From Amoebophrya sp. A120 (lineage: Eukaryota > Protista > Dinoflagellata), in assembly GCA_905178155.1 (NCBI GenBank), contig CAJINV010000027.1, forward strand, positions 123,697 through 187,696: DNA of 64,000 nt, read 5' to 3'. The stretch's first letter is position 1; every line of letters starts with the position of its first letter. The notes beneath the pieces are model-generated. The model had not been told where the DNA came from. It searched no databases and worked only from the letters and a program-made list of their open reading frames with translations. Both the position numbers and the translations under genes were made by a program. Below are positions 118 to 64,000 of this stretch, piece by piece.

Positions 118-265
118 TATCCTGTGCAAAAGTATCGTCTTCGTATTGCAGTCATGCATTGCAAGTCTTGTTCTTAAGCTAAATGCGCATTACAAATTTT
201 ATTTCTCATGCAGAGGAAATTGTTTGTGATGCATTTATACGAGTACGATACTTTTGCAGTGCATA
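118..265. mobile_element. Introner family B (TIR TATCCTGTGCAAAAGTATCGT), probably in 5' UTR
   Basis: TIR; DR ccagt/ccagt. Confidence 0.9.
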
Positions 266-297
266 CCAGTAGGTTCATCTTGATCAGTCTGCGAAAA

Positions 298-3200
298 ATG
301 ATCCGGTCCTCGTCGGGCAACAGATGGCTGCCGAAAGGCACGTCGGGGTTGTACTGGTGGCACCTGCACTGTATCCTGTTTCCCATCCTGTTCGACCTAG
401 AAGCTGGTGCTGGTTGGTGCACAGCTAGTAAAAAATCGGTGAGCGTCGTTGAGGCCGCAGCTTCTATGGAGCAGGACAGACACTTCTCGAGCGAAGAGAA
501 AGTATCGAGCTTGGCGCCCGCAATTGAACGTTCCTCGGAGCAGGGAAACGTCGCGTCGTCAATGGGATACGATCCTACGGACATTTGGGATCATCATCCT
601 GTGAAGACGTCGAGCACGAGAGATACATGCGAAATTCGGTTTGAGCTGAAGGACTGGAAGGTGAAGCAGCAACTTCAATGGACTGCGGAGAGAGCGAACA
701 CATCACGAGGACGAGCCTCACTCGTCGACCCGGGACCACAAGCCACCGCCGAAGCCGAAGCCCGGTCCGCGACGTGGCCAGGACCACAGATGGAGACGAG
801 CACCCAACACTGGCTCTTGTCTGCGCTCGAAAAGAGGCGCGAGCGGTTTCACTTCTTGTCAGGGCGGCACTGGCTCCATGTTAACCCTGGAGTGTGGATA
901 GAGAACAGCCGACATCTTTCACGGGAAACCAGTGTCTTCGACGGTCCCCCGAGACAGAGCGTTGTAATAAAAGTGGAGGATGATGAAGATGCCACTACAG
1001 TGTCAGTGAAATTCCAAAACCCAGCACTCATACGAGCAAGTGCAGCTGCCGCTTCTTTTTTAAACTCAACGCTGGCAGATTGGCGTTCCCTTCTTTTCCA
1101 GGATTTCGACGCAGGCCAGGCAGGATACATCTTTCTGGACAGAAGAAGAGCCGGGCTGGCATCGCCGACGATCACCTCACTGAAATCTTTGTGTCTTGTT
1201 TCTTCCAGAACCGCGCCTCGGTTCCTTCTGGGACGTACTGAAGCCGTTGTTCACCTTTTGGTTCAAAGAATCATCTCACCACTCTGGGAACTTGCCGATC
1301 TCCTGCTCCCGACAAGCTCAATACATGAGCTAATTTCGCAGCGCGGATGGGCAAACACGCAGCTCCGCCTGACCACACTGCTCGAAGGAAAACAAATCGA
1401 CCCTACGCAAGAAAAGGAAACAAATAGTCGGAAAGTAGAAGTCCAGGCTTCGCAGCTAATCGAAAGTGGCCGGGGGCGTCGGGGGGTGATCGATGCAGGC
1501 GGGCATGCGCATGGCGCGACGTTCCCTCGAAGCCTCGGCACTATCATCGCAAGGCTTCTCGAAATAGACTGGAACCAGGGAGATGAGTCGAACACGTCCG
1601 GAGCCGCGATTGGTGGTGCACGAGTCCGCCCCTTTGGGGACCCGGCATTTCTCCCGCTGGGAAAGCAGTTGTCGGCCTTGGATTTTGTTCGGCTGCACTT
1701 TTCTACAACAGAAGGGCGCTTTCTGAAATCGGCACTACCGTTTGGCACTTCTCTCGTCGATGGGTTCTCTTTCAGCGGGGCGGACTGCGATTTGAAAACT
1801 ACCGGTTTTCTGGAGGATAAAATTCCAATAAGATTTGGGCGAAGTAAACAGCAATACGTATTTGCAGTAACCTGCGATAAGATCCTCCGCGCAAAAGAAG
1901 TAGAGCACGACGGCGAGGAAAGCGGCTTGCGGACTCTCGGTGGTACTGCGCCAAGCGATATCCTGTGCAAAAGTATCGTACTCGTAGTAATTGCATTTGC
2001 GCATTACAAATCTCTTTCTCAAGGTAAATCAGCATTACAAATTCAATTTGTAATGCTGGGGGAATTTGTAATGCAATTTATACTAGTACGATACTTTTGC
2101 AATGCATAAGCGAGGATAGTTCTGCTGGAGTATTGTGAGGAAAAATCCCCCCTCCCCACATCGAGACGAAGTTTCTGATGCTGGATTTCCGTACACAAAT
2201 GCGCACTGTCTTGCGGTAAGGCATCTTCGCAGCCAGGTCCTCAGTCTAGGTAGGGGCGTTTATTGGGTCTAGTTGTTTAGCATTACGAACGGCTGTCCCC
2301 GAGGCCCAACAGCATGCGAAACCGCTTCCATAATGGCGCGGAAGCCTCTGCACTTGTGTTCTTGCAAGACAGACGTGATTTGTAGTCTCAAATCAGCAAC
2401 ACAAATTTCCGGTAAAGTACCGCTTCGATATTATGCATGGGGAGGGGGGATTTTTCCTCTTAATATGGAGTGAGCCGCGTTGTGTTTTTGTTTGACGCGT
2501 GGGTCTATCAACTGCAAATATGTCTGGGTCTTGAAACTTGTAATGCTGCGTTGGGAATACTAGTGAGTGCTCTGTTAGGCACAGCCAAGCAGGAGAAATA
2601 TCTGCGCTTCTTTGTGTTGCGTTTTTCGCATGACAAACTGCGTCTTACATGACAGGCAAAAGGGTCTCTTCTTGGACACGCGTCACAAACTTTTTGGTCA
2701 TGCCGGACAAGCATGACAAATCTCGCAATCTTCCAGACCCAGACACTTTTGCATTTGATAATAGCCCCCTGCTCAGAAAGGGCAGGCTGCAGCTCGTCGG
2801 CCTTGACATTTACAATCACAAGGACGCGGCTGCGGCACGGTTGCTGGCCGCGGCAAGTGATCAGCCATGCATCCATCCGACCAACAAAGGAAAGGTCGGT
2901 GCCGGCAGCCCCACGGAGTATCCTGTGCAAAAGTATCGTACTCGTATAAATGCAAGTCTTGCATTACAAATCTTGTTCCCAAGGCAAATCTGCATTACAA
3001 ATTTTATTTCTCATGCTGAGGAAATTTGTATATGCATTTATACGAGTACGATACTTTTGCAGTTCATACGGAGAGGATTCGGTTGAAGTCTTTCGTGTGG
3101 GACGCGGCGTGGCCTAGTACAACTTCCAACTTGATAACAGCATATCAAAAGGAAAAATCCCTCCTCCCCAACATATCGAAAACAGAATTTGTGATGCTGT

Positions 3201-6200
3201 ATTTTTTTGAGTACACAAATCGACTTGTATCGCTGGAAGGCCAAGAGCCGCAGTTGTGGCCACCTCGTTTGCAGATGACAATTTGTCATGCTGTTTTTCC
3301 CACTTCCAGCTGCCTCCTGTCATGCTGAAGTAGGTGCAAGGCCTTCCCACGCCACCCAGATGAACTACAGTCCCCCGCATCTTTTCCCTCCTAGCATGAC
3401 AAAGCTGATTTGTGACCACCAACCTGCATCACAGACTTCCGTTTTGATAAGGGGAGGTTTTTCGTCTTGATACAGCAGAAGAGCAAGCTAGCAGTCCGGC
3501 TCTTCCACCACGACCCCTACTAGCGAGCCCGCCAGCTGCCCCGGCCTCCTGTCTGGAAAATAAAGCGTCGACAGTGGCAGCTTTTGGTGCACCTCCTCCA
3601 CACGGACCACCATGTGGTCTAACTGCGGTGGGACAACAAGCCGCGGAGAGGGACATCAAGACGGGCATGACCACGCGCTCCAGTGACATTTTTACCGGCA
3701 ATATGGAGAGAAAAAAGTTTGTCACAGTCACTAAGTTGCAGGGTTGGCATTACAAATTTTTTTTGCATCACAACTTCTCCTTGCATTGCACAAACACTAG
3801 AAAAATCCCTTATGAAGTGTGGCTGTGATGCATTTTTACGCATGACGGACAATTTTGTCTTGCAAAAGTGCCCATGAGTGATCGTGACGAACTTTTTTCT
3901 TTTGATAGGCAATGAGGCTGCTTCATCGGCCGTGGGAGGTTGTCCACGCAGTCGTCGGGGAGAAGAAGCGCAGGGCGCCGCCCACCACAGCAAGGAAATA
4001 AATAGCCGGGCGGACCAAGAAGCAGCTGCTGCAGCCACGACTAGTACCGCAGCCGCCTGCCCCCGTCCTGTCAACCTCCCTGCTTCTTCCCCTGCTGTTG
4101 CCGCCGGTGACTCGGCTGCGACGCCAGCTCGCAGATCCGGTAGTACAGCTAGCAGCGCCGCCTACAACGGGGGGGGTTCTGGTTCTCAGGTTGCATGTGC
4201 TGGCCTGCGGCCCCCAGTTCCCGGTGGCGAAAATGGAGGAGGTGGCTTTGTCCCGCCCTGCGTCCCCCACGTTTTGTCCGTGCAGCAGCGGCGGTGGCTG
4301 ACTGGGCACTTGAATGTCGCAGCAGCAGGGGGGCTCCAATATGGCCTGGAACCTGATGGCCCAGTGCAGCAGCAGCAACAGCCCCCACGCGAACCACATG
4401 GCCCGGGACCTGATGGCCCAGTGCAGCAGCAGCATATGACAGTGCACAACTCCCCCTCCCCCTCATTTGTATAGCATGAATGGCTATACAAGCATCAGCA
4501 AGAATGCCGGTTTTGCATGACAGTTTTGCACTGGAGTGTAATGCTATTTGGGCTACCGGAACTTGTCATGCAAAAAGTGCCAAGAGGCAACGGGTGGACT
4601 AGGTATTTTGCATGACAAATGAGGGGGAGGGGGGGTTGTGCACTGTCATACAGCAGCCGCAGCCCCCACAAGGTGGGCAAATGGATGAGATTGCTCAGCG
4701 CCCAAATGGAGTTGGCCATGGACCCCCTCGTCTTCTACCAAATGTAAAAATGTCTGGGTCTGAAAACTTGTGATGCTGGGTGGCGTCTCATGATGAGGCT
4801 ACAGATGCTGGCTCAGCATGACAAGTTTCTGAGCTCCTAGCTGTTGCCTATTCTGCATGACAAACTGCGAATCTGCATCACAGAAAAACGGGGGTCTTGG
4901 GTAACGTGCATGACAGATTTAAGAGTCATGCCAGGCAAGCATGACAAACATGAATTCTTCCAGACCCAGACATTTTTATCTTCTACCTGCAAACAAAACC
5001 CTTCCAGGGCCAGGGGCTCTCGCGTCTGTCGGCCGGCCCGCCAACGGGACGCCCATCACGACCCACGGGACGCCCATTTCTGGAGTGGTTCTTCGCGACC
5101 CTCCGGGAGCGGGCGGCCCTGCTTCTGTTGCAACGGTTTCGGCTCCACCTAGCAGACCCGCCCGGCCGCAGGTTTGTGAAGAATTTGACACCGTCTGGGA
5201 CCTCATCCGGAGAAGTCCCGCGGCCCTGGAACACGCCAGCGAGGCTTGTATGGCTTGCTCAGATGTTACAGTCTCAAACGTTCTTCCATACAATAGAGTC
5301 GGTATTTTGTATTGCATGATGAGCATGACAGACTCGCAGAGCGTTTCATTTTCTGCAATACAATTTTTCCTGTGCGGTTTGGGGTTCGAAAACTTGTCAT
5401 GCGCATCAATGCTGGGGGACTAGTTGTAGGTTAAATCATCTGCGCTTGGTGCATCACAGATTTTCAGATTCTATCGTGGCGCTTGAGATTTTTGCAACAC
5501 CTGAGCAGGTTATAGCTTGTCGCGACAGCTTCTACCTGGTGCTGGAAGCCGTGCGGTTTGAGGAAGTTCCGATGTTGTCTGGAGGCACGGAGCAACATGA
5601 TGATCCCAGCGACCAGAAACCTCCCCTCGTTTTCGGGCTTCTTCGGTTTGCTTCAACCCGGTTGCAGGACCACGGAGAGATCGTGTTTCCCGCGGTAAAG
5701 CGCGTGGCGCACAATCTCAAGTTCGCCTCGGCGCGGCTGCGGGACGACAAAAATCTGGTCGTGATCGCCGTCACAGGAGGTGTTGGCGCAATGCTGGAGT
5801 TCGCCTCTGCCCGCCTACGGGGTATCCTGAGTAAAAACGTACCCACACCAGAGTCAGGATGAGGATTTTGCAACACAAACCTAGGAGTTTTGTGAGTCAC
5901 GCATGACAAGCTGCACTTTGCAGTGTAGTGCAGGTTAGCAAGTGCAGCCGCATCACAGATTCATCTGCTCATCCTGTTCACAGCATCACAAATTCCAAAA
6001 CACGATTGGAAATGGCTCTCATGGGGATGCGCATTACAAGTCTTCCTGTCTTTGCAAATCTGCATTACAACTCTGGTGTGGGTACGTTTTTACTCAGGAT
6101 ACGGGGAGATCGCGACGTAGTTCGCTTGGCGATCGACAACGAAGTAGATACAACAAACACCGCTCCTCCCCTATCAAATGCAAGAGTGTCTGGGTCTGGA

Positions 6201-8037
6201 AGAATGCAACTTGTGATGCCGCGTTTGGATGTCTAAAAAATTTGTGTTGCATGAGCGGGAAAAGGATTGCAATTTTTGCTACGCGGAGAGGGCATTTGTC
6301 ATGCGGAATAGGCATCGAGAATCCCTCAAAAAACCTGTGATGCTAGGGCATGCATGACAGACATCATGGGTCATGCAAACCGTGCATGACAAGTCTCAGA
6401 ATTTTCCAGACCCAGACACTTTTACACTTGATATCCCCAAGAGGGAGGGATAGCAGACACAAGTAGCGACTGCGTCGCGCTGAAGTTTGCTTCGTCAGAT
6501 TATGCAAGAAAAAAGCTGTGTAAGTGTAAATCTGTGATGCAGAAAATGCAAAACAGTTTACACTTGTCATGCTCAACATGCGTGATCGGCTTGCTTCCTA
6601 TGTGTTTTCCCTTCCTATCTGCGCATAACAAGTTTTTCCTCTCATGGCAGACAAACTTGTAATGCTGTTTTCCCAAAAGACCATACACTAACACAGTTTT
6701 TTTCTTGGATACAGATTTGCAGGCGGACCGGGAGCTGGGCCTGGTTGCGGTGAAGCGGTGCGGCCGGGCGCTACGGTTTCTGGATTTCGTATCCTGTGCA
6801 AAAGTATCGTACTCGTATAAATGCATTACTAATTTCCTCAGCATGAGAAAGAAAATTTGTAATGCGGATTTGCCTCAAGAAAAATATTTGCAATGCAAGA
6901 CTTGCATTTATACGAACACGATACTTTTGCACAGGATATTTCGCGTTGCGTGACGACGACGAGGTGTGCCGAGAGGCGATTGCACAAGACCGCACTGTAT
7001 CAAATGCAAAAGTGTAGTCTGGGTCTGGAAAAGTGTAGACTTGTCTTGCAGATTTTCCATGACCCATAAGGTCTGGAATGCGGGACTTAGCATGACAGAC
7101 TCTGCGAGGTCTTTTCCATGCCTATCCTGCATGAGAAACTCCTTTCCAACTTGGTCAAAAGTGTACCGCTTTTGGCACTCATGCAAAGCAGACTTTTGCA
7201 TACTTCAGATTTACCATGACAAGTTGCAATCTTCCAGACCCAGACATTTTTGCAGTGCATACACTGCCCTTGATTTCACGTCCGAGCGTTTTCGCGACAG
7301 CCATAACCAGGCAGAGCAGAGGGCCACGACCCTTGCCTGGGTGGTTACCGGGGTCGCGATAGGTCTCGCTACTCTGGCGCTCCTGGTCGCTGTGTTTATT
7401 CTGGTGCGGTGGTGCGCGACCAGAAGCGCTGCTGCTGAGCGCTCGCAGGAGAAAGGAGTCGTGGCTGCTGGCCCAGGAAAGGTAAGATTCGATATGCGGC
7501 AGCGTCGGTTTGTCCGGACAAAAGTACTAAAACCTAATGAAGTTTGTAGCCCCGCCGCGGCGCCTCCGTCGGAGCCGGTGGTAGCGCGCAAAGGCCGCAG
7601 AGACCACAGGAATCCCGACCAAGCTGTAGTACTTCTACCGAGCAAGGACAACGACCAAGCTGGAGGAGAACAACGACAAAGGCAGCCAAGTAGCGCACCA
7701 ACAACATCGCAGCAGCCCCCGGCGGCCAATGACAAAGGAGGAGGACGCGCGGGAGGTAATGCGAGCTCCGCTGCAGTTATGCAATGTAAATTAAAATTTC
7801 CCGTACATGTACAAAATGCATGACAAATTTTCGCTAACTTGCAGTGGTCAACTTGTCATGCTAGACTAGGATTGAAGGCAAGTTTTGTCATGCAGAGACT
7901 GCATTTGTACTTGTGCGGGAAATTTCCTGTGGATAGCAGTAGATGCAGAAGATGAAGAAGCACCTGCGGGAAAAATCAAAGAGCCTTTCGTGTTCGATCA
8001 TGCGCCGCAGGTACAACGAACACTACCTAATATTTGA
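298..8037 (+). CDS. Multi-exon gene (~1396 aa after removing 15 introners): DUF4116-like repeats, C-terminal TM helix, possible N-terminal signal
   Basis: Removing each element + 5 nt keeps one open frame (7740-3549=4191 nt, divisible by 3). Repeats such as LKFASARLRDDKNLVVIAV, LEFASARLR|GDRDVVRLAI, LKFASSD|LQADRELGLVAV span the junctions; TM LAWVVTGVAIGLATLALLVAVFILV. Start and last exon uncertain. Confidence 0.75.
1959..2108. mobile_element. Introner family B
   Basis: TIR; DR agcga/agcga. Confidence 0.9.
2131..2465. mobile_element. Introner family C (TIR TAT..AGGAAAAATCCCCCCTCCCC)
   Basis: TIR; DR tggag/tggag. Confidence 0.9.
2506..2760. mobile_element. Introner family A (TIR TATCAAATGYAAAAATGTCTGGGTCTGGAA)
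   Basis: TIR; DR decayed (gggtc/atagc). Confidence 0.85.
2919..3068. mobile_element. Introner family B
   Basis: TIR; DR cggag/cggag. Confidence 0.9.
3143..3472. mobile_element. Introner family C
   Basis: TIR; DR cagca/cagca. Confidence 0.9.
3702..3907. mobile_element. Introner family F (TIR TATGGAGAGAAAAAAGTTTGTCAC)
   Basis: TIR; DR ggcaa/ggcaa; sibling at 20496. Confidence 0.9.
4435..4650. mobile_element. Introner family G (TIR TATGACAGTGCACAACTCCCCCTCCCCCTCATTTG)
   Basis: TIR; DR cagca/cagca; sibling at 17006. Confidence 0.9.
4736..4978. mobile_element. Introner family A, right TIR missing ~9 terminal nt
   Basis: DR tcttc/tcttc. Confidence 0.85.
5249..5514. mobile_element. Introner, singleton (TIR TATGGCTTGCTCAGATGTT)
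   Basis: Imperfect TIR; DR gcttg/gcttg. Confidence 0.85.
5823..6101. mobile_element. Introner family E (TIR TATCCTGAGTAAAAACGTACCCACACCAGAGT)
   Basis: Perfect 32-bp TIR; DR cgggg/cgggg. Confidence 0.92.
6172..6433. mobile_element. Introner family A
   Basis: TIR; DR tcccc/tcccc. Confidence 0.9.
6501..6711. mobile_element. Introner family I (TIR TATGCAAGAAAAAAGCTGTG)
   Basis: TIR; DR cagat/cagat. Confidence 0.88.
6790..6938. mobile_element. Introner family B
   Basis: TIR; DR tttcg/tttcg. Confidence 0.9.
6998..7261. mobile_element. Introner family A
   Basis: TIR; DR cactg/cactg. Confidence 0.9.
7778..7935. mobile_element. Introner, singleton
   Basis: Imperfect TIR (aaatttcccgtacatgtaca / tgtacttgtgcgggaaattt); DR gcagt/gcagt. 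Confidence 0.85.
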
Positions 8038-8228
8038 AGATCATAGAACATTTTTTGCTTCAATACTACTTCCAAACAAGACTTCTATTGCCGCGACGGT
8101 GGCCTTGGAAGATGCCGAAAAGGTGAGAACTACCTCAACGAGCTGAAGAACGAGTTGGCCTATGGTTTTCATCTCCCAGATTCTTGTTGCTCGATCTTAT
8201 GAGGGGCCAACAGTTCTACTTTTGATCC

Positions 8229-11200
8229 ATGTGTGCTGTTGTTCACCGTGGAAAGGCGTCAGGATGCAGGAGCCACAATAAAATTTATTTGAAACAAGTA
8301 AAACTCCACTCGTCCTCCCAACATTCCCAATATACAACAAAACAGACCTCCGCGGGGAGAACAAATAACTCGGATGTAGTTGAAAGCAGCCCGGATGATG
8401 TTGTAGTCCTTGAAGGTGGCAAGAATGCAAGCATTATGCCTTGGACGGTCGTTAGCGTACAGAAGGGTGAATTTGTATTGCATGACTTGCATTTAAGTAC
8501 TTAAAAGAGAAGTGCGCTAGGTATTAGACACACGAGCCCAAGCATCCCGCATAGCGTGAAGGGCTGCTCGTCGCGTGGTGGCGCTTGCAGGACCGAAAGA
8601 AGTGGTCTTGCGGGGGCTCGCTCGCCGGGCTGTGTAGTGCGTATGTACCCAAAGAAGGTGGGTCGGGTGGCTCTTACTCTTCTGCGCGTCTGCCTGAGAA
8701 GTTCCTCTCCGGAATTGTCGAAAGGGAGGGCGACGCCTGAACACACGGGCACTAGTTCAACATGTATGCCCTCGCGAGTTGTGGTTGGCTCGGCTTCGAC
8801 TTGGATATCTGGGAGCAGCCTCAAGTGGAAGGGGAGGCACGATTCGGCCGCGGACGGTAGCTTGCTTCGCCTGCTGTGCTCTGCTCCCAACTCCCCAGGC
8901 GTGTTTTTGCCTCCGGAGCGAGGCCTTTTCGACGTGACCCCAAGGTCAGGATTTCTCTTGGTGAATTTTGGGGCTTTTTGTTTTGGCGACACTTTTTTGA
9001 AGCCCCAAAACCCGAAGTTTCTCGTGCGTTAGCGAATTTTGAATAGGCACCTCGGGCCAAAATTCACCCACGGTTTTTTCAAAATTCACCCCAAAATTCA
9101 CCAGGCCCCCCTTTTCGACCGTGATAAGCAAACTTTAGCGCAGAAAAGTGCGCAAAGAAGTGCACAGGTAGGCTCTGGGAAGTGGGGCCGAGGAGAAAAG
9201 ACAGGCGCCCGCTGTTGCCCTCAGCGCCTCTATATTCTGCCGAAAAGGCCTGGAGAGTTCACGCGCCTGCCGGATAGACGCATCAAAGCTCTCGGCCGGG
9301 TCCTTTCACCTTTGCTTCCGCGCCTTCCTCTTGCCTAAACTGTACTTATGTGCTTCGCGGCTCTTGTTTTTGGCGTCTTTGCCGCGGCTGCTGCAGTGCT
9401 TGCTCTTTTGCAAGCACAGGAAGACGAAAAGATATGGCCAAAGAACGACGCCCAGGCCATGTCCAGCTGCCCGCCGCATAAGCCTGGACAACTTCTACAG
9501 TGTGCAGAACCGACTTCCCAGAAGGGCAAAAGGGACAATGTCCCGGCAGTCTCCTCTGCTATTTGTCATGCAAAATTCACTACAAACTCACCACTTCTCA
9601 TGCTGACGGGTGTTAAAGCTCTAGTGAAAGCAGCCCGGATGATGTTGTAGTCCTTGAAGGTGGCAAGAATGCAAGCGTCGCGCCCGGCGTAATTGTTGAA
9701 AATGCCCAGGAGGTCGTGGGCGACCGCCTACTGGATGAAACGGACGTGGTCGGCTGCGTGGACGAGCGGCCAGGAGAGCAGCAAGAAGTGGCGCAGAAGG
9801 TGAAACTCAGGCCGGCGCCCGACACTTTCCCTCCAACGTCCGCGGCCAGACTCTTTCCAGCAACGGGCGCTAGAAAACAGCACTACAAGCCTCCTTGCAG
9901 CAAGGCCGGACCCCCTCCGCCCGTGCAAAACTTCCGCACGGTGAAGGGCCGGCCCGCCCGGGTTCGCGTGTACGAAGCGCGTGACGAGGACGAGTCGGAC
10001 GACGACGACGGGGAGGGAAATAACAAGAAAACACGACGTATCCGGTGTAAAAACGTCCCCATAGTCAAGATGGGAAATCTGCTAGACAAATCAAAGAGCT
10101 TTCGCTGTTTCGCATGACAAGTTTCTTGCCCTCATACTAGTGTGATCCTGTTTAGATTAGTTTATCAGCATCACAGATCCAGCGCATAGCGTGCTGATTG
10201 CAGCATCACAAACTCCAAAACACGACTAGAAAATTATGCTTCTCATGGGGCTCCGCTCGAGAAACTTTTTTGGCATGCAGATGTGCATGACAACTCTGGA
10301 GCGGGGGCGTTTTTACTCAGCATACGACGACCAGCGCAGGGCCGTTGCTTCGTTATCAAAATGGAGCAAAGGGACCACCCCGTGGTGCGGAAGAAGGTGA
10401 AACGGAAAGAGCAGAAGGCAAAACATGCTGCCGGAGGTACCCCAGATCTTCAAGGACGAGTGCAGCAGCTGCACCTCCAAAGGCAACACGAAATCGTTGG
10501 CACGGCTGCCCCCATAATATCCACCGTGAAATATTAAATTACGTCCCCACGATCCCAGAGTGAAGATGGGCATTCTGCTGCCGGGCATGACAATTTTGGG
10601 TCTTATTAAGTCGTGAAGTAGATGCTGGACTACGAGTTCTACCGAAGTCACATCACAAATCTAAATGACACGTTTCATCCTGATTAGAGCATGACAAAGT
10701 TGTTCTCCCAGATAGCATTTTAAAACTCCCGTGGTCATGGGGCTCCTGCTGCGCATGACATGAAACTGCGTCTGAAGTTTTTTGCAGATTTGCGTTTTTG
10801 ACAAACCTGGGGTTCTTGGGACGTATTTGCATAGGATAGCACCACGCCGAGCCACTTCAAGGACACGCAGCGCAAAACTGCCAGTACTACCAGCAGAAAA
10901 ACAACGCCGGTGGACAAGCCCTGATATCATCGCAGCAGCATCCGCTACATTCCCTCCAGGAGCCGGTTTTCGCTAGCGGCGGCTCCCGAGGTGGAACAGC
11001 AGCTGTGCCCACGACGCGGCTTGGGAAACAGAACGGCTATGAAGCAGCTGCGCTGGGGCTGCACCGATACGACATAAGGTACGAGCAGGGGCAACTTCGC
11101 TGTGTGCAAGGACGAGGTGCCCCGCGGCCCACGGTATGGATTGCAAAGATGTCTGGGTCTGGAATGAAGCTGGAACTTGTACCATGTGCGTGTCTTGCAT

Positions 11201-12991
11201 AATTCCTGTGTAAAATCTGTGTTATTTCCTGAGCAGCATATGAGCAGCTTCCTTTGTCATGCAAGAACGCAATTAAACGCAATTTGTAATGCGTGCTAGG
11301 CACGACCATCAGAAGGCGTCTCAAAAACTTGTCATGCTTGGCTGCCTCCAATGCTGCAAGCGCTTCAAAAATCATCCGCAATTCAGCACCACAGGTTCTT
11401 TCCAGACGACCCACACATATAATTTGCAATGGCATATTACACAGGGCAGCAGGCATTGTATGGATGTGTCAGGATTGAAATCGACAAAGTTGAAATAACT
11501 TGTAATGCATAAAATGCATGAAAGTTGTGACCCAGTTTCTAAGTGGCGCATGACAAATTTAGGCAGAGCCGGAATCCAGTTTGTCATGCTGTTTGGGTAA
11601 GAAAGACGCCTTTTGTCATGCTACTTTAGCAGCTCAGTTTCTATCCGTCAACAGGCTTGCAATCTGCCTCACTTGCCTACTCTGCAAGACAGGCACTTTG
11701 AGGGCTGCACTTTATGCATGACAAACTATTTCAACTTTGACGATTTCAAACCTGACGCTTCCATACATTGTCTGTCGTGCTCGAGGAGGATTCAAACTCC
11801 GCCGAAAGTAAAGTATCATTTGTAAAAACGTCCCCACCCCAGAGTCAAGATGGGGACTTTGCAACACAAACCTTGAAGTTTTGGGAACCACGCATGACAA
11901 ACTGCAGGCTGTAGTGTAGTGCAGGTTAGCAAGGACAGTCGCATGACAAACCCATCTCCTAATCCTGTTTACAGTATTACAAATGCCAAAACGCGATTGG
12001 AAATGCCTCTCATGCAGATGCGCATTACAAATGTTCCTGTCATTGCAAATCTGCATGACAACTCTGGGGTGGGGACGTTTTTGCTCATGATATAAAGCTA
12101 ACGCGACCCTATGTCCCGAGCAGGTGGCGCTTGACAGGGAGTTCGAGAACTTGTGTCGGGCCCAGGCGCTGCCCTGGCAACAAGGAGGGCTGGAATTCGA
12201 ATTGGACCACAAGCAAGAAGAAGATGTGTATGCAAATGCCACGGCACCGGAACTGAGTGGCGGCTCTAGTGGAGGTGTATTGCTGTTTGGTGAAGAATAT
12301 CCTGTGCAAAAGTATCGTACTCGTAGTACTTGCAGTCATGCATTACAAATCTTTTTCTTAAGGTAAATCCGCAGTGTAAATGCGGATTTACCTTAAGCTG
12401 AGGAAATTTGTAATGCATTTATACGAGTAGGAGTACGAATACGATACTTTTGCAATTCATAAAGAATTTGAAGATGGTCTTCAAGAACGACCCCCCGAAG
12501 GTCATTCTTCTTCAGCGTTGTTTCCAGGGCCGCCGCACCCCAGTCTATGCAGCGAGTTCCAGCGAAAGAAGGATTCAGGGGACAAGAGCTGCATGGAGAA
12601 TAAAGATTGTTCCGCGCCACCGGAGCAGCATTGTATTCGCCAAGATCATCATGCTAATTTCGATGGTCTTGACGCAAAGATGAACATACAAACCGCGTCT
12701 GGAATAAATGGCCGTTCGGGGGTGACGAATTTTAAAGCCAATCCTGTCGTTCCTCAAGTTGATGTACACGATGGCATGAAGATCATCAGCCCTAGTGCGC
12801 CGCCGGAAGGGAAGATGAACAAAGACCTCCTGCTCCTCGGGAGCAGCGGGAAGATATTCACCCGCCCCCCGCCTCACTCCCCGCCGCCCCCCCTGGCAGC
12901 ACACGATTACTCCACGTCCTCTTTTGCGCCGCCGGAAACTGTTGAGGAGTGGGAAAAGTTACAGATGCTTCGCGGGTACCAAGAGTATTGA
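8229..12991 (+). CDS. Multi-exon hypothetical low-complexity protein (6 introners plus a 1.2-kb insert)
   Basis: ORF pieces 8229, 9716, 10283, 11005, 12124 and 12518 join in frame after removing the elements; stop TGA 12989-12991; no recognisable domain; start uncertain. Confidence 0.55.
8433..9624. mobile_element. 1.2-kb insert flanked by a perfect 52-bp direct repeat
   Basis: 8381-8432 = 9625-9676; starts ATTAT, ends CTAG; degenerate subterminal inverted repeat. Confidence 0.7.
10039..10324. mobile_element. Introner family E
   Basis: TIR; DR cgacg/cgacg. Confidence 0.88.
10518..10838. mobile_element. Introner family E-like, degenerate
   Basis: Degenerate TIR; DR lost, but element + 5 nt restores frame. 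Confidence 0.7.
11135..11436. mobile_element. Introner family A-like
   Basis: TIR; right end uncertain by 3 nt (DR cacgg/cacag). Confidence 0.8.
11459..11765. mobile_element. Introner family D (TIR TATGGATGTGTCAGGATTGAAATCGACAAAGTTGAAATA)
   Basis: TIR; DR cattg/cattg. Confidence 0.9.
11814..12092. mobile_element. Introner family E
   Basis: TIR; DR taaag/taaag. Confidence 0.9.
12298..12461. mobile_element. Introner family B
   Basis: TIR; DR aagaa/aagaa. Confidence 0.9.
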
Positions 12992-13707
12992 AAAAAGCCG
13001 GAACTTTAATGAGTTTGAAGGCTCTTGCTTGGTACCGCTACCCTCCCGCTGCGTGCGGGACTAGCGACGAGTACAGTCTTCAAGAATGAATAGTACACGA
13101 TTTTTTTGATTTAAGTATATATTTTCGTCAGCATGAGGACCTGTTTGCGGTTTTTTATGTTGACACGAAGATAAGAAGCAACTCATCTCCACGTGACTGG
13201 CATAAAAAAGTGATCGACCGCTGCGACTTGCTACCTCATGATGTCTTGAGTCCGAGCGAGGGCCAAGAAGTTGCTTTAGTCGCAGTTTGTCTACATCATT
13301 TTCAAGACGTTGTTACGTAAGAGAAGAAGAGCGCTAGCACTTGTATAATGCACATGATCCGAGAAAGAAGAAGCGAGTGAATCCCCCAAAATAAGCATTA
13401 CACATAAGAGTATGTCAGCGAAAGAAGTTTGCTTTCTACCGATATTTTCTAGGCGGATGACAAATCATTATTTTTATTCCATTATAGTACATACAAGCTT
13501 TTCCTCTTTATGGGCCACCCAGTGCACCCCAGAAGTACAAATCATTACCCATTCGGCCACCTGAGTTGAGGTATCGGCTTCAGTACATCAGCGTAAGCAG
13601 CTGATAGGCCAGCCATCTTGCCGCACGAAGTAGGATCTATCGAATTCATGCGCTTTTTGTAGATTTGCTGCCTGTACGGCATAAGTAATAATAGCAAGAG
13701 AAGTTTT

Positions 13708-13972
13708 CCGCAGCTTCATCTTGCAGGCTTTTCGTTTTCATTCGTATTTAGCATTACCAACTGCCTCCATCGAGCACGGCAAAAAAAAAGATGCCCAAGA
13801 ACTGTATTCATGCATTACAGACCTTGTGGTCCATGAAATCTCTCGACATCACAAATCCAGACTCATCCAGGGAGGAAATTGGCAACGCATATGCTTAAGT
13901 CCACAACTGTTCAACGAGTTCAGTTACCTGCTGGACTTCGTGTTTATTGCGGACTCGTTCTTTCTGCAACAC
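13708..13972 (+). repeat. Dispersed intergenic repeat (copies at ~23273-23760 and ~23992-24410)
   Basis: Shared sequence ccgcagcttcatcttgcaggctttt...ggcaacgcatatgctta...ggacttcgtgtttattgcggactcgt. Confidence 0.85.
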
Positions 13973-14472
13973 AGGAACACCACGACACGACAGGAGCCAA
14001 CATTTGAGATCAACAATCCAGGAACGTCAAAGGAGCACAAATCTACTTATTATGCTGTTGCAAATGAGGATCTGGATCAGCATAAAAAAATATATTAGAT
14101 TGCAATCGGTTTTTTGGCAACTGGATCTCCTGGATGAACGTAAAAATTTTTCCTCGTCATCATCTTCATTGCTACGACAGAATCTTCTGATCACCGGGGA
14201 CCAGAAAATGAAAATGGTTTCCGTCACCAGTAAGCAACCGAAACGCGGTCCACCACATTAAATGCTGTTGGTGCTACTTGCGAGGACATTTTTGAGGTGT
14301 ATTTTACGATCAAAGAGAAAGGTGCGCAGATCGTAATCAAGAGAAAGGTCGGTGAAAAATCCCAACATCTTCGGCTTCACATAAAGACCGCTTGAAAATA
14401 AAAGTGTTGCATTGCTACTGCTAGAAACAGCCGCATGGAGAGGATTACTCAACATACTGCTTTTCAATTTAC

Positions 14473-23272: not shown

Positions 23273-24410
23273 CCGCAGCTTCATCTTGCAGGCTTTTCAT
23301 CATTCGTATTTAACATTACCGACTGCCTCCATCGAGCGCGGTTAAAAAAAAGATGCCCAACTGTATTCATGCACTAATACAAACTTTTTGGTCCATGAAA
23401 TCTTCCGACATCACAAATCCAGACATTCAGGAGGGGTATTGGCAACGCATATGCTTAAAAGTCCACACCTGTTCAACGAGTTCAGTTACCTGCCGGACTT
23501 CGTGTTTATTGCGGACTCGTCTCTGCAACACAAAAAATCTTGATCCTCTTGCAACAACGCAAGAAAAGTTCTTGTGTCTAAAGTCCTCGTGGTCACAATT
23601 ACAGATCTGTTTCTGCAACACAAATCTCGATGATTACAAGCCAAAAAAATGACAAGCCATCAAGTTCTCCTCTCTACTGTGTGTCTTTCCGAAAAAATCT
23701 TTTCTGCAGCAGAAATCATGATCCTCTGGCAAAATTGCAAGACACGTTCTTCTGCAAAGCTTGTGCCTGTTGCTGGACGAGCCGTATGTATTTTCTTAAA
23801 ATCGAAGAGAGAAGTTTCTGATTCTGATTCCGAGCTCAGCATGACAAGTTTCTGATTCTGAGCTTCTAGGTTTTGCCTATTCTGCATAACAAACTGCGTT
23901 TCTGCATCACAGAAAAATGGAGCTCTTGTATAACGTGCATGACAGATTTATAAAGTTATGCCAGGCAAGCATGACAAACATACATCCTTCCAGAACTGTA
24001 TTTATGCATTACAGACCCTGTGGTCCATGAAATCTTCCGACATCACAAATCCAGACCCATCCAGGGAGGGTACTGGCAACGCATATGCTTAAAAGTCCAC
24101 AACTGTTCAACGAGTTAAGTTACCTGCCGGACTTCGTGTTTATTGCGGACTCGTCTCTGCATCTGCAACACAAAAAATCTTGATCCTCTTGCAAAAACGC
24201 AAGACAAGTTCTTTTGTCGAAAGACCTCGTGGTCACAAATACAAATCTGTTTCTGCGAACACAAATCTCGATCGATGATCATCGATCGTGCAAAATTTCT
24301 TGAAGCCATCAAGTTTTCCTCTTTACTGTGTCTACTTGCCGAAAAAATCTTGTCTGCAGCAGAAATCATGATCCTCTGGCAAAATTGCAAGACACGTTCT
24401 TCTACAGAGC
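23273..24410 (+). repeat. Tandemly duplicated dispersed repeat with an embedded TIR-less family A fragment (~23845-23994)
   Basis: ~23368-23760 resembles ~23992-24410; the fragment matches ~20238-20404. Confidence 0.8.
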
Positions 24411-25071
24411 TGTTTCCACAAAAATGCCTGATCTTCGGATATGAAATTACTCCTCCTTCTGCAGAACTGTTTGTGCGGAAGATGTTCTACTTGAGCGGTC
24501 CGAAAAATTAATTGTTCTTCTGTCGTCGCGATCCAAATTTGTCGCGGTGGGATCCTTTCAAATCTGTGCTCTTGTGAAGTAACTTCTACAACGATCAACA
24601 GAGATGAATAAACCAAATCGCGGATCTTCTTCCTACTAGATCGTGCCCTAATTCAGCTGTATTGATGGAATGATAACGTTCATACTGCCCTTGCTGACGA
24701 CTTCTGACCAACGCGGCCCGCCACTCCGTAAGAAAAAATCAGCCAGGAATAGCAAATTTCTCATAGGATAATTTTCTGAAGAACGTGCGGACCCACCAGC
24801 CTTCCTTTCGCTGACCGTAGCAGGCTGCCTATGAATTTTCGATATTTTTTATTTCCGCCATATTTTTCTCGTGTTCTTTCAATCGAATTGCGCTTAGCCG
24901 GAGCGGTCAACCAGTTTTTCAAGCAACGATAGTTTCTGACGTTTTTGATTACGTAAAGTGCCACGAGTGATATTATTGCAGTAGGCACAATAACTCCATC
25001 TACATAAACAGCAGTGAAAAACTATCCGAACGCATAAAAACTCTTCTCCATTTGTACATGAAATATTAAAC

Positions 25072-47337: not shown

Positions 47338-48966
47338 ATGACTATTGCACCGCATACTTCTACTACGACCTCGTCTCTGCGACAGGTAACAACTACAACA
47401 CACTTATCCAACGGCTCCTATACAATTAATACAACGGACACGTATGCGGGCCCGGACGAAGACGCACACGGATCCACCGTCATTTGCGAACGAATGGTGG
47501 AAGAGGCCGACTTATCAAATGTAAAAATGTCTGGGTCTGGAAGAATGCGAGATTTGTCATGCATATTTCGGATCACGCAAATGGCGTCTGATGCAGGCAA
47601 AAGCATCACAGGTTTTGAGCACGCCTCATGATGCCTGTCCCGCATGAGAAACTTCCTACTTGCGTGCCAAGAAATGGACAGCTTTGGGCGCTCATGCAAC
47701 ACAAATTTTTGTGTGTTCCCGAGTTTGCATCACAAGTTCCAACCCTTCCAGACCCAGACATTTTTACATTTGATACGACTGGGACGAGGACACCGAGTAT
47801 CAAAATGAAAAATCCCCCCGCCCCATATCGAAACGAAGTCTGTGATGCTGGATTTGCGTACGCAATTAAGATTTGTCTTGCTGGAAAGGACAACTGCAGG
47901 CCCATATCAAGACTGAGTAGAGCGAGAGGTTTTGACCTAGGCACTTAGCATGAGGAGCGTCTGCGCTGTAGGCCTAACAGCATCACAAACCGCCTGCATA
48001 ATGCGGCGGGGCCTGCGGGGTTGACTTCTTGCAAGACAGAGATGATTTGTGGTCGCAAATCAGCATTGCAAATTTTCTAGGACGTACCTTTTCGATATGG
48101 GGAGGGGGGATTTTTCCCCGCGATACCGAGATTCTTCAGTTTGAAGAAGGCTACCCGAAACTGGTGCCACATCAGGACGACGCCGCTTGGATAAGTCAAC
48201 ACGTATCCATCAACAAATCACTCTGTCCGGGTATCATGGAAAAAAGTTGTACTTAGTACATGCGGAATTTGAATTTCTGTAATGTTGTATATAAAAAGTG
48301 CAGCCCACGCCCAGCTACTTCTTAACAGGTTAATATACTTATACTGCTGCATACCAAAACCACTTATTATATTACGCACACGCTCTACAAGAACTCATGC
48401 GTGGTGCGCTGGCGCACTACAAAGGCGGGTGTTCTCGCATGACAAATTATGGAGCGGGGCTACCGCTACTCCTGCCGGTCATGCAATACCGATTTCCGTT
48501 TTCCAGGAAGCGAATGCATATGCAAGACAGGCATGACAATCTTCGCTTTTTGTCCACGACACCCAGATGAAGACAACATATTTGCAGTTGATAGCACCGG
48601 GAGCAGGCTCATCCTACCTTGTCCGCAGTGCTCAAACAGGTGTGGCACGCATTTTCTGGCTCCGGACTGGAGCCAAGGAGCGGTGCACATTTTACTGTTT
48701 TGACCAATGCAAAGGACGAGGTGAACTACTTTGAGCGCAAAAGGCGGACCGAGAGATGGAACCGCACCGGTCTTGGGACGAATGTGGACCACGTACGCGG
48801 GCAGATCGAACAGCACTTCGCGGCAGCCTTCCGGCGATTCCGGGAGACTGGCGCATTTGACAGAAGAGCTGCGGAGCTGAGGGCGGGAAGCCACCCCATG
48901 CCGCCACCGGGGTCTGCATTAGCCGAGGCGTTAGGCATTGTTCAGAGCGAGGCCATAATACATTGA
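47338..48966 (+). CDS. Hypothetical protein or 3' part of the preceding gene (3 introners)
   Basis: ORFs 47338, 48029 and 48619 join in frame; stop at 48966. Confidence 0.5.
47513..47775. mobile_element. Introner family A
   Basis: TIR; DR cgact/cgact. Confidence 0.9.
47798..48125. mobile_element. Introner family C
   Basis: TIR; DR ccgag/ccgag. Confidence 0.9.
48204..48593. mobile_element. Introner family A-like, old
   Basis: Degenerate TIR; DR acacg/gcacc; removal restores frame. Confidence 0.7.
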
Positions 48967-49476
48967 AAAGTGCCCCCAGGACGACCCCAGAAGCAGAACT
49001 CGGCAGCATTTGCATTGCAAAGCCTCGTTACGAAAACACTAGCCACACTTTGCAAGTATCAGACAGCAGCGCCACAAGTTTTCAAAGCTGCATAGCATAA
49101 GCTACTTGCTGTTGCAAATAAAGAGCCCAGCAAAAGCCGGGCCTCTCATGTACTAAAACCTGCCTTGTCTCAGTGTCGTGCCTAGATTCTGACTCATAGC
49201 GGTCCAGTCATCTTGCCAGACAAAAACTTTCCGTTTGGACGAAAAATCTCTGCAGCAGAAACTTTTGCAGCTTCCGGGGTAGAGATAGGGCACTTTGCAT
49301 TGTAATAGGCCAATCTACTATCAAACGAAAAAAGTGTTACAGTTACAAATTTCTCAGCATGAGAGAGAAACCTTGCATTGCAGAAATCCTACGGGAAAAC
49401 ACGTAGGAAACAAGGCTTCTATGCAGATCCGGCATGACAGAGCTTGTCTGTCTTGCTATGCCTGCAACACAGTGTG

Positions 49477-57179: not shown

Positions 57180-57215
57180 GGGATTAACCACAAAGACTAC
57201 CCATCAGGAACGCTA

Positions 57216-57963: not shown

Positions 57964-58109
57964 GAAAAAGCTCGTCCTCCGCTCTTTTTTCGCAACAAAA
58001 AAAAGTAGTACAGTTTGTTTTACCCTCTGTAAAAGGAAAAAGCTCGTCCTCCGCACTTTCTTCGCAACAAAAAAAAAAGTAGTACAGTTTGTTTTACCTT
58101 CTGTAAAAG
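57964..58109 (+). repeat. Tandem duplication, ~72-bp unit x2
   Basis: gaaaaagctcgtcctccgc...ctgtaaaag occurs twice. Confidence 0.9.
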
Positions 58110-59498: not shown

Positions 59499-59598
59499 NN
59501 NNNNNNNNNNNNNNNNNNNNNNNNNNNNNNNNNNNNNNNNNNNNNNNNNNNNNNNNNNNNNNNNNNNNNNNNNNNNNNNNNNNNNNNNNNNNNNNNNN
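59499..59598. other. Assembly gap (100 N)
   Basis: N run. Confidence 1.
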
Positions 59599-60303: not shown

Positions 60304-63300
60304 ATGACGCGTTCTCCGGTAACCCCTCCCGGCGCGGTTTCTGGTGCCAGCGAGGCGGTGCGGCAGCACAACGAAAAATTGATGATGGCCAACAAGAAGT
60401 GCAAAACAGGCCTTTTCGGAGGTGTCTCGGTAGTTGCGAAAAAGTACTCTCCCGCGGTCGTGATGGTAGTCGCCGTGGCGTACTACTACTTCTCTACCCT
60501 CAGTCAGCACCCAGACTCCTTGCCGGAGCACGAGGTAGTCGTTGTAGACCACGGAAATAAAGTAGACAATTCCACCGCGATGAATAAACCAAGCACAGAC
60601 CCATCAACTTCAACAACTCCGTTCGTATTGCGAGATGAAAACTACAAAAACCACACGACGAACGACACAGCTTTGAGGAAAATGATGGACAACAACAAAA
60701 CCCGGAACACGACCACTCCCCTGGACGCTTACCTCCTCAGCATTCTTGCCGAGCAGCAGAAGTACACAAACCTGTTCACCTGGCTGAAAACCGACTGCTA
60801 TCATAGTGAAAAAAACCACCACAACCCCATATTCAAAAGACATAATTTGTGTTGCTGGTTTTGGGTACACAAAGGAACTTTGTATTGCAGCAAGATCTTG
60901 TCGGCATATTCAGTAAGCCCATTTTTTGGGTACTACGCATCCGGCTAGTGCAGCTGAGCATGAGAAACAAGTCTGACCTTAGGCGAAAGCGCATGACAGA
61001 CTTGCTGCACACTGCGCCACATGGGTGCAGCCGTTTGCGTTGTACGCAAGACAAAGTAGCGGATTTGTCGTCACAAATCAGCAACACAAATTCTCTTTTC
61101 GATATGGGGAGGGGGGATTTCTCCTTACGATAACTGCAGCGCGGTCGGCTTGGACAACGTCAGAATCGGATACGCAACCTACTTATCAAATGCAAATATG
61201 TCTAGGTCTGGAAACCTGTGATGCTGATTTGCTGCTGGCTGCAACGCTTGCCATCGCAGCCACGCATAACAACTTTTTGAAACGCCTTCTGATGATCATG
61301 TCCTGCCCGCATTACAAATTTTTGCGTTTTCGCATGACAAAGGAAGCGGCGCTTCTGCTGCTCACGCAACACAGATTTTCTAGGAATTCAAGACACGCAT
61401 TACAAGTTCCACTCTTCCTGACCCAGACGTATTTGCAGTTGATACGAGACCGCTAGAAAAAAAGCTCCTATGCGCGGACTTGTGGCTGCGAAAGATTTGC
61501 GCGCCGGAGAGGACATTGCCTGCATTTCAAGGATATCAAATGTAAAAATGTCTGGGTCTGGAAGAATGCATGTTTGTCATGCTTGTCTGGCATGACTCTT
61601 GAATATGTCATGCACGTTACCCAAGAGCTCTATTTTTCTGTCATGCAGAAACGCAGTTTGTCATGCAGAATAGGCAACACCTAGAAGCTCAGAAACTTGT
61701 CATGCTGGGCCCGCACTTGTGGCCCCATGTTGATACGCCACTCAGCATCACAAGTTTCCAGACCCAGACATTTTTGCATTTGATAAAGGAAGTGCTGGCT
61801 CGGCCCGATCAATATGCCGAAGCGGTACGAATATCAAATGCAAATGTGTCTGGGTCTGGAAGATCTGTCATGCTAGTCTGGCATGACTGTCAACTCTGTA
61901 TTGCGTGCCCGCATCAAAGAGCTCCTCTCACCTGTCATGCAAAAATGCAGTTATTTCTCATGCGGAGTACGCAACTCTGAACCACGGAAGAACTTGTCAT
62001 GCTGGGCAGTGCATTACAGTGTGCTCACTATTTCCTTCCTTGCATCACAACTTTCCAGACCCAGACATTTTTGCAGTTGATAACGAAATGTTGACGAAGA
62101 AGTACCCGGAGGAGTGTTCGACTCGGTCCCCGTTCTCCCTTTGGGTCGCAGAAGAAATGGCCCAAAAGCGCGAAGCTTCGGCGTTTAAGCACTATTTTCC
62201 GATGCTGATGTCCGCGGAAGACTACCTGCGCTATCAACTGTAAAAGTGTCTGGGTCTGGAAGGTTGGAACTTGTGATGCTCACTTTGGATTCTAAAAAAA
62301 TCTGTATTGCATGACCAGCAAGTAGAGAGGTCTCGCTTCTGCTACGTGGGGAGGGCATTTGTCTTCATGCGGAGTAGGCATCAGGAAGCTCTCGAAGAAC
62401 CTGTGATGCTAGGTCGTGCATTACAGACATCCCGGGGCATGCAAAATATGCATGACAAATCTCAGAATCTTCCAGACCCAGACATTTTTACATTTGATAT
62501 GCGCAGCGGTCACCCCATGTACTGGCTGGACGGTGCTGCGCGCGAACTCCGGATCAAGCTGCAGCGGAGGAACAGCACGGAATATCCTGCCCAAAAATCT
62601 CTCCACACCATAGTCAAGTTGGTAAGAGAGTTGTGCATGACAAGTTTCCATCTGCAGTGTAGTGCTGGTTAGCTAGGGAAACCGCATGACAAAGCCACTT
62701 TCTAATCCTGTTTACAGCATTACAAATGACAAACACGATTGGAAATGCCTCTTTTGGAGATGCGTATTACAAATGTTCCCGCCATTGCGCATTGGCATGG
62801 CAACTCTGGGGTGGGGACGTTTTTGCTCAGGATACGGAAGGAGGGAAAATGGAAAAGCGTACACAACAAAACGCGGCAAAAACTACAACAAGCACCGGCA
62901 AAAAAAATGAAGAATATCTAGTGCAAATATATCTGGCTCTGGAAGACACTAACTTGTGATGCTAAGTCTACACAATGTAAAAATCTGTGTTGCATGACTG
63001 CCAGCAGTTGTCCACTTTTGACCAAGTTGCGAGGGAGTTTCTCATGCAGAACCGGCACGGCAGAGATGTCGCAGAATCTGTCATGCCAGGTCTTGCATTC
63101 CAGACCTCATGGGTCATGGAAAATCTGCATAACAAGCTTCCACGCTTCCAGACCCAGACATATTTGCATTTGATAAAACAACGGATGCAACGACGACTAC
63201 AGCGGTGCATCTTCTCTCCAGCGAGCAAGAAGACTCCGTCCGCCCCTGGATGCCACCGCACATATCAACTTGAAAAGTCCCCCCTCCCCATACTCAAGGG

Positions 63301-64000
63301 AAGATTTATTGTGTAGCATGATTTGTGATCACAAATCACGTTGTCATGCTAGAAGGGAAGTAGAGATGCGGATTTTGTAGTGCTGGCTGGCGTAGGAAAG
63401 CCGTGCGCCTTGAGCACGACAGGAAGCTGCAACTGGAACCGGTAAACAGCATAACAAATTGCCTGCAAACGAGGTGGCCACAACTGCGTCTCTTGGCCTT
63501 CTAGCAATACAAGTCGATTTGTGTACTCAAATACAGCAACACAAATTTCGTTTTCGATTTCGACGAGAGGGGAGATTTTTCCTCACAATAGCACATACAC
63601 CAGAGTTACTGGCTGGAGTACCGGATCAAACCCTTGCGACGGTGCTACAGTATCAACTGCAAAAATGTCTGTGTCTGGAAACTTGTGATGCAAGAACGGG
63701 AATAGTGAACTCACTATAACACGCTGCCAAGCATGACAAGTGTTTTCCATGGCTCTGAGTTGCGTACTCTGCATGAGAAACTGCGGTTTTGCATGACAGG
63801 GAGGAGGAGCTCTTCGCGGCCATGCAACACAGAGTTCAGAGTCGTGCCAGACAAGCATGACAATTCTCGCAATCTCCCAGACCACCCGGACATTTTTGCA
63901 TTTGATATACAGGAAGTACCTGCAAGAATACACCCAGGAAGACGGGCTTTTTTGGGGGGACGAGGTCATCCCCATCTCCGAGACCCAAAACTCGCGAGGA
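60304..64000 (+). CDS. SET-domain lysine methyltransferase (SETD3/SETD4/Rubisco-LSMT-like), partial; N-terminal hydrophobic anchor; 9 introners
   Basis: Spliced motifs LFTWLK, MRGLVAAKDLRAGEDIACIS, LWVAEE..SAFKHYFPML and HPMYW follow the LSMT-type SET order; frame is open to the window end. Confidence 0.75.
60799..61132. mobile_element. Introner family C
   Basis: DR actgc/actgc. Confidence 0.88.
61184..61444. mobile_element. Introner family A-like
   Basis: TIR; DR decayed (ctact/cgaga). Confidence 0.85.
61534..61785. mobile_element. Introner family A
   Basis: TIR; DR aagga/aagga. Confidence 0.9.
61832..62082. mobile_element. Introner family A
   Basis: TIR; DR acgaa/acgaa. Confidence 0.9.
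62232..62499. mobile_element. Introner family A
   Basis: TIR; DR tgcgc/tgcgc. Confidence 0.9.
62583..62834. mobile_element. Introner family E
   Basis: DR cggaa/cggaa. Confidence 0.88.
62915..63175. mobile_element. Introner family A
   Basis: DR aagaa/aaaca. Confidence 0.85.
63263..63590. mobile_element. Introner family C
   Basis: DR gcaca/gcaca. Confidence 0.88.
63651..63907. mobile_element. Introner family A
   Basis: TIR; DR tacag/tacag. Confidence 0.9.

Follow-up and report, generated by a model that had tools for sequence, protein, structure and literature searches.

For Amoebophrya sp. A120, published counts stand at 1954 families of introners and 29,850 introns that are repeated, and in the accessible parts of the two sources these families are classed as diverse or unknown (PMC7789003, PMC12130899). 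According to the accessible text of PMC7789003, the A120-type introners start with TAT, followed by about seven loose bases and then AAA, and they have inverted repeats, 5-bp direct repeats and non-canonical splice sites, fall into many families and lie in co-oriented genes. That text describes only the ends of the elements and leaves their mobilisation open. Here, we analysed a stretch of 64,000 nucleotides of this genome (contig CAJINV010000027.1 of assembly GCA_905178155.1, positions 123,697 to 187,696 of the forward strand; hereafter the window), and all counts below refer to this one 64-kb window plus a contig of another assembly (L001). The 72 elements recognised in the window likewise have TAT-AAA ends, a 5-bp direct repeat at their borders and non-canonical removal, and they match the published A120-type introners. 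In addition, we found a short internal motif, present on both strands, that is shared by element families which cannot be aligned with each other and that probably serves their mobilisation.

Repeats inside the ends of mobile elements are known from other systems. In the accessible parts of the work on the Emigrant MITE (miniature inverted-repeat transposable element) and Lemi1 (PMC1636448) and on Tn7-like TnsB arrays (PMC13598128), short repeats of either orientation, direct or reverse, lie inside the ends, as here; they are related to part of the TIR (terminal inverted repeat), and cooperative binding depends on their arrangement. The elements of the window also carry a repeated motif inside both ends in a constrained arrangement. 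However, the repeats of those systems belong to one family and lie near the ends, whereas the present motif fills the whole element and is spread over groups, at least 13-16 in number, that differ in their TIRs and cannot be aligned. Furthermore, the elements here are also introns, unlike those systems. The nonconventional introns of euglenids are alike in having an end stem a few bases inside non-canonical junctions, repeats resembling target site duplications (TSDs) and a probable MITE origin, but the accessible text makes no mention of a repeated internal motif on both strands (PMC11282704). For A120 itself, neither GCAT nor TTGT was found in the accessible main text of PMC7789003, nor the word "internal" in its supplement, and the motif was absent from 12 of the 14 supplement files of PMC12130899, which may not hold sequences. 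A literature search for GCATGACAA together with transposition gave nothing related by title among the matches listed, with figures, theses and subscription papers outside its scope. The internal motif is not described in the literature text searched, a prior mention in figures, theses or subscription papers being possible. What appears to be new is an internal, selected and spaced motif common to unalignable families; introners and subterminal binding repeats were already known.

Elements were delimited by TAT...ATA ends, complementarity of the ends and a 5-bp flanking repeat. There were 48 automatic calls and 25 hand-guided ones, and a candidate without such ends (46103-46327) was dropped ahead of all counts, which left 72 elements in 24 families of our own grouping (F1 to F24; not the families A-I of the preliminary description). 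The ends of the elements starting at 4736, 10518 and 11135 were reset by at most 10 nt after their joints had been seen. Among the 144 ends, positions 1-3 read T in 139, A in 142 and T in 140 cases, and A occupied positions 11, 12 and 13 in 120, 127 and 137 cases; the full run of A is incomplete in F4, F10, F12 and F17. An exact 5-bp TSD flanks 51 of the 72 elements and none has one of 3, 4 or 6-9 bp, although this count is not independent, as the 5-bp length was used in the element search.

The exact motif, GCATNACAA/TTGTNATGC, matched the window 176 times (102 on the plus and 74 on the minus strand) between 187 and 63863, against 2.79 ± 1.58 and a maximum of 8 in 100 dinucleotide shuffles. 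There were 167 copies within the 72 elements (18,879 bp; 8.85 per kb) and 5 in 44,180 bp of other DNA (0.11 per kb), so that the density in elements is not that of the background; another 4 belong to two fragments of elements, which had been masked and entered neither the inside nor the outside count. Five fragments were masked from the outside-element count. Shuffled element sequences gave 1.8 ± 1.2 exact copies, and among gapped 9-mers the motif ranks first by family count (21 of 24). With family-weighted training, a weight matrix gave the 10-bp consensus GCA(T/A)(G/C/T)ACA(A/G)(A/G) and 370 sites within the elements, with a median of 5 per element. At least one matrix site occurs in all 24 families and at least three occur in 22. 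Thus, the preliminary claim that every family carries the motif holds for the matrix, but not for the exact 9-mer, which 65 of the 72 elements carry and which is found in 21 of the 24 families. Its rarity in exons, noted by eye in the preliminary description, was confirmed: matrix sites are scarce in coding exons (0.91 per kb), and the three exon ranges named there (about 300-1950, about 18480-20150 and 21033-22235) hold 0 exact copies. Contig L001, the sole contig matched in a search for a three-site spacing pattern, has the same families and the same site grammar, with 15 exact copies in six called elements and 2 in a seventh recognised by eye.

The sites are not placed at random. When each family was counted once and compared with random placement, same-strand sites 31-33 bp apart amounted to 19.3 against 3.05 ± 1.72 expected (0 of 2000 nulls reached this value), and back-to-back sites 46-49 bp apart to 9.1 against 1.74. 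A same-strand pair at 30-36 bp was found in 17 of 24 families, and no same-strand pair at 10-17 bp. After related families had been merged into 13 conservative groups, the values were 5.2 against 1.16 for 31-33 bp and 3.0 against 0.82 for 46-49 bp (P = 0.005), and a back-to-back spacing of 15-17 bp was not significant at this group level (P = 0.17). The periodogram peaks near 30-31 and 16-17.5. The spacing check proposed in the preliminary description yielded two preferred spacings. In about 40 of 48 weighted ends, the outermost site begins at a distance of 32-59 bp from the terminus. In addition, end positions 4-13 show a partial, degenerate likeness to an inward copy of the motif (matrix score -2.9 against -8.6; with a common column permutation as the stricter null, P = 0.027).

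Conservation was measured in F1-F6 (48 copies); for each copy, the consensus of its fellow members served to define the sites. The mismatch was 6.9% in the site core, 8.1% in the inner TIR (positions 14-30) and 26.2% in the spacers. The core is therefore about four times more conserved than neighbouring bases, which differs from decay at the neutral rate after common ancestry. After masking of sites and ends, 8 of 276 family pairs aligned above z 4 and 16 groups remained, while 11 within-family controls aligned at z 9.9-94. Furthermore, site order and orientation differ among families, related ones included. Neutral inheritance alone is rejected, because the core is conserved, the spacers are unalignable and the order and orientation of sites differ. 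The "common cis-code" of the preliminary description stood up in these respects: the motif exceeds the background, is common to unalignable families, has its own spacing rule and is conserved like the TIRs.

The balance of evidence favours selection during transposition and nearly free decay afterwards. Two F1 copies, at 47513 and 29099, are 36-40% diverged in their spacers and have perfect ends and TSD, so their spacers diverged within lineages that were still mobile and retained the sites. Among 42 copy-private insertions, 18.7% fell in sites, which make up 19.5% of junctions, and 11.9% against 23.2% fell in the outer 30 bp (P = 0.053). The core/spacer ratio of mismatch was 0.58 in 13 close pairs and 0.32-0.35 in 196 distant pairs. 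The earlier statement that the motif persists in decayed elements is true in part: degenerate sites survive, while copy-private changes erode them. We also observed that 20 of the 42 copy-private insertions, all in F1-F6 introns, are exactly 3 nt long without a frame constraint, which points to a mutational or repair bias.

Judging from the sequence, we consider the motif to be a set of putative sites on double-stranded DNA at which a single protein, common to all families and probably integrase-like, would act to mobilise the elements, with a probability of roughly 0.6. The use of both strands, the lack of covariation and the existence of elements with few sites fit recognition on double-stranded DNA. 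The protein would be an integrase-like transposase or its DNA-organising partner. It may be loaded cooperatively on the presumed degenerate terminal copy (positions 4-13) and on the internal pairs at 31-33 bp, and such loading could bring the two ends of an element together. Selection would act when a copy spawns new copies, so that spacers would drift into many "families" and sites would stay; after insertion, single sites would decay almost freely, and splicing would rest instead on the end stem and an N-TAT donor. To speak of three helical turns for the 31-33-bp spacing is an interpretation and not a shown periodicity, because the periodogram has no clear peak at 10.5.

The best candidate for the partner is A120 family 38, which the accessible text of PMC12130899 gives as about 810 bp long with ORFs resembling Copia/Gypsy integrase regions, a 5-bp TSD and TA/TA termini; of 22 other A120 rows considered there, 17 are entered as "TIR DNA, unknown". 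IS3EU/GingerRoot elements have TA..TA termini, as here, but in the accessible text they usually make 6-bp TSDs, a length found in 0 of our 72 elements, and GingerRoot has TIRs of 100-150 bp, unlike the elements of the window (PMC10045372, PMC6839031). Since those groups make 6-bp TSDs, the elements were not filed under them. Ginger1 and Ginger2 were rejected as well, for their descriptions, as far as accessible, require TG..CA termini and the elements here have TA..TA.

Several observations weigh against a mobilising protein. In 95 non-genic window frames of at least 85 aa, Pfam matched no family at all and hence no transposase, and the TIR pattern had no match in viral or metagenome contigs. 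The accessible text of PMC7789003 likewise found no transposase in A120 and argued against a general mobilisation by transposase. Substitutions private to single copies are still rarer in the core than in the spacers (0.029 against 0.071), which sparse sampling can explain without this being proven, and copies with damaged ends did not differ significantly from intact copies (0.036 against 0.026, P = 0.27). A plain 10.5-bp periodicity was rejected (z 2.4 for same-strand and -0.8 for all pairs; 21 was negative). The outermost site points outward in 34.9 and inward in 13.1 weighted ends and sites fill the whole element, an array looser than classic end arrays. Finally, the canonical GT-AG intron at 8011..8345 (plus strand, 335 bp), with 0 exact and 0 matrix sites, is a control of n = 1.

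If the proposal is right, the single conserved internal site and its spacing rule mean that most families may be one system served by one protein. The motif can be used as a bait for pull-down and as a signature for finding the autonomous element. It offers a way to tell the requirements of the elements for movement apart from those of the host, which splices them without GT-AG and, it seems, also without U1, and it turns the question of how these introners move into a direct test.

The same elements are removed from RNA. In contigs of run X1, a run whose RNA nature was guessed by the tool (none of the listed runs is recorded as RNA) and which also skips the GT-AG intron, elements are excised as the element plus 5 nt; contigs of run X5 cross exon-element borders. 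Between 1900 and 12600, 15 of 21 elements are in listed joints and the other 6 are without one. Beyond these, three more elements are skipped directly and two by length. Copies of F1, F3 and F4 are skipped in both orientations; plus copies of F6 are skipped directly and its minus copy indirectly (a contig leaves the genome at 25871, and the frame is open). In the intron at 10517..10842 (plus strand), the two TSD copies differ and the cut is fixed, falling 1 nt ahead of TAT and 4 nt past ATA (hereafter -1/+4); this intron has only 3 matrix sites, and its joint comes from three runs of one sample. The intron at 11134..11440 (plus strand), followed by an exon of 13 nt, is a second case that fixes the same cut. 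A third intron, at 4735..4991 (plus strand), lies over the F2 copy 4736-4987, which has lost its outer right end and TSD, and it is skipped as element plus 5; solely a removal of 257 nt preserves a frame of 1464 aa, the letters between the contig ends of this joint being not known. Splice borders are variable in the accessible text of PMC7789003, whereas here they are -1/+4 in the informative cases. The cut stays the same even in introns that no longer have a TSD or whose outer right end is missing, which suggests that it is set by a ruler from the inner end stem.

At the donor N-TAT, the first dinucleotide is GT in 26, AT in 19, TT in 14 and CT in 12 cases (n = 71), and the acceptor dinucleotide is arbitrary. 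Removal by the -1/+4 rule restores frames of 1464, 1167, 1083, 573, 561 and 403 codons, each across 6-16 elements, and all host frames are on the plus strand. For instance, the frame at 25018..30475 (plus strand) runs for 1083 codons from stop to stop after removal of 8 elements, and its exons match MOSC_N and FAD/NAD oxidoreductase domains. In the 2026 RNA runs X9 and X10, which bear the same species label, the region 25000-39200 had 100 and 9 partial matches and no junction support. These runs contain short element pieces at about 90-95% identity and one loose end with the motif, and related elements probably exist in another strain.

Removal of this kind raises another explanation, by which the motif is a redundant mark that makes the element recognisable as an intron and is read on DNA during transcription or on folded RNA. 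Nearly all complete elements are located in genes, and their precise removal, the single canonical intron without a site, the private substitutions below the spacer level in the core and the apparent loss of U1 in this lineage (PMC7789003, accessible text) all agree with it. Site redundancy could also mask a splicing role, as about five sites per element would conceal selection on any one of them. Nevertheless, several facts weaken this reading: the sites show no strand preference and lie at varying distances from the splice sites, elements with 1-3 sites are removed, and private insertions fall in sites at a nearly neutral share but tend to spare the ends. By transcript strand, sites number 209 and 161. 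With the outermost site at a varying distance and in either orientation, no ruler for a fixed -1/+4 cut is given. Among the elements with only 1-3 sites, those at 7778 and 10518 are skipped, and those at 38337 and 38688 are part of restored frames. We therefore regard a splicing mark as unlikely, and of the two functions named in the preliminary description, a transposase site or a splicing mark, the former, read as a site for a transposase or accessory DNA-binding protein, fits better. A branch-site box or RNA splicing enhancer, which would occupy one strand at a set 3' distance, was rejected on the strand counts and on the varying distance and orientation.

Slightly less probable than this is a host DNA-binding or chromatin protein (for example AP2-like) for packaging or silencing, with site-bearing elements being tolerated or spreading better. 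A double-stranded signature suits any DNA binder, a TIR-less intergenic repeat also has degenerate sites on one strand 31-34 bp apart, and the start of the motif resembles the palindrome TGCATGCA, which PfAP2-EXP binds according to the accessible text of PMC6631176. However, the motif is not this palindrome, sites are scarce in exons and in most intergenic DNA, conservation follows the TIRs, and the presumed degenerate terminal copy suggests a protein that binds the ends. An ApiAP2 site of the TGCATGCA type, a palindromic octamer enriched between genes, was rejected, as the matrix is non-palindromic and concentrated in elements. Close behind, and still improbable, is one protein, bound to the motif on DNA, that both mobilises all families and marks them for removal during transcription in place of the missing U1 step; introns would then be defined on DNA by a transposon protein, with the TIR stem fixing only the -1/+4 cut.

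It is very doubtful, and largely refuted, that the inverted copies exist only to form hairpins of RNA or single-stranded DNA. The predicted pairing of sites is above average (0.69-0.79 against 0.57), site-site pairing reaches 0.5-0.66 in several families, and in 23 close back-to-back pairs the share with a match at position 9 is 0.65 against 0.44. However, the sequence of the sites is fixed, although pairing alone would not require this; opposite-strand sites show no covariation at variable positions (position 5 match 0.35 against 0.34; 388 pairs); site-site pairing is 0.00-0.12 for the sites of F6, F15, F19 and F23, whereas end positions 14-30 pair strongly (0.84); and the strongest spacing is that of same-strand copies. 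The reading of the motif as a neutral relic, left by a single ancestral element that consisted of short repeats, to which the relatedness of some families and the end signature common to all would point, is refuted as the sole cause by the fourfold conservation of the core, the turnover that differing site order and orientation require, and the sites that stay where spacers have lost alignment; the explanation that we favour does include ancestry, together with selection.

The largest family, F1, has 15 copies of 239-281 bp. An example is 6172..6433 (plus strand), with sites at about 40<, 71<, 125<, 164<, 181> and 213>, which is skipped as 267 nt in an RNA-type contig; other copies start at 6998, 18190, 20740, 26702, 29099, 33020, 37771, 47513, 52577, 53742, 56918, 57216, 62232 and 62915. 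F2 has 10 copies, exemplified by 27363..27614 (plus strand; sites 33<, 81>, 120>, 140>, 173> and 204>; skipped as 257 nt), and its other copies start at 2506, 4736, 20157, 38779, 41456, 41804, 61534, 61832 and 63651. The copy 38779-39044 is nested in a host element of 118 bp (38688-39076), and its core mismatch (5/42) is the same as that of its spacers (0.12), the outcome expected of neutral decay. F3 has 8 copies of 146-164 bp, for example 1959..2108 (plus strand; sites 43>, 74>, 90< and 108<), the others starting at 118, 2919, 6790, 12298, 35951, 37536 and 55123; those at 6790 (minus) and 12298 (plus) are both skipped. The 6 copies of F4 measure 307-321 bp, for example 11459..11765 (plus strand; sites 42<, 90>, 123<, 155<, 226> and 258>), with further starts at 17320, 25220, 29456, 33745 and 36157. 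The 5 copies of F5 measure 323-336 bp, for example 47798..48125 (plus strand), with further starts at 2131, 34108, 37096 and 52898; its relatives are F8 (3143 and 63263) and F24 (60799). In F6, the example at 5823..6101 (plus strand) has six strong sites on one strand that form three pairs at 31-33 bp (48, 79, 128, 161, 209 and 240); other copies are at 11814 and 62583 (plus) and 25589 (minus), and F14 at 10039 is a relative.

Smaller families are F7 (61184..61444 on the minus strand, 11135-11436 and 43812-44079; relative F18 at 27914-28166), F9 (3702..3907 on the plus strand and 20496-20701), F10 (4435-4650 and 17006-17232) and F11 (6501-6711 and 33321-33529). F1, F2, F7 and F18 share TIRs. 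Single-copy families start at 5249 (5249..5514, plus strand), 7778, 10518, 17689, 26165, 34586, 38337, 38688, 48232 and 48956. The elements at 2506-2760, 48232-48593 and 61184-61444 have intact ends and flanks mismatched at 3-4 of 5 positions, possibly through small insertions beside the end or recombination between copies. At the gathering score, Rfam gave 0 matches in the window.

Two fragments lie outside the complete elements: an intergenic, TIR-less F2 core at 23831..23994 (plus strand) with 3 exact sites, and one that is F3-like by eye at 45950-46074 with 1 exact site. The former sits inside an intergenic repeat (13694-13973, 23259-23761, 23994-24411 and 31240-31450) that has degenerate sites on one strand, several of them 31-34 bp apart. 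No TIR or TSD was found around this repeat, which could be the remains of a longer element. At 49318-52463, an introner-like left end is followed by a stretch of about 3 kb with a direct repeat of 106 bp at its borders (49466-49571 and 52358-52463, 96% identity) and then by an N gap; the region has no Pfam match and is either an insertion or an assembly artefact. Another intergenic repeat, GC-rich and about 900 bp long, has two copies (15291-16211 and 45043-45937) that are 68% identical and carry no exact motif. Finally, the exon at 21002-22232, which is free of motif and elements, consists of tandem 69-bp coding repeats that we take, by eye, to be MORN-like.

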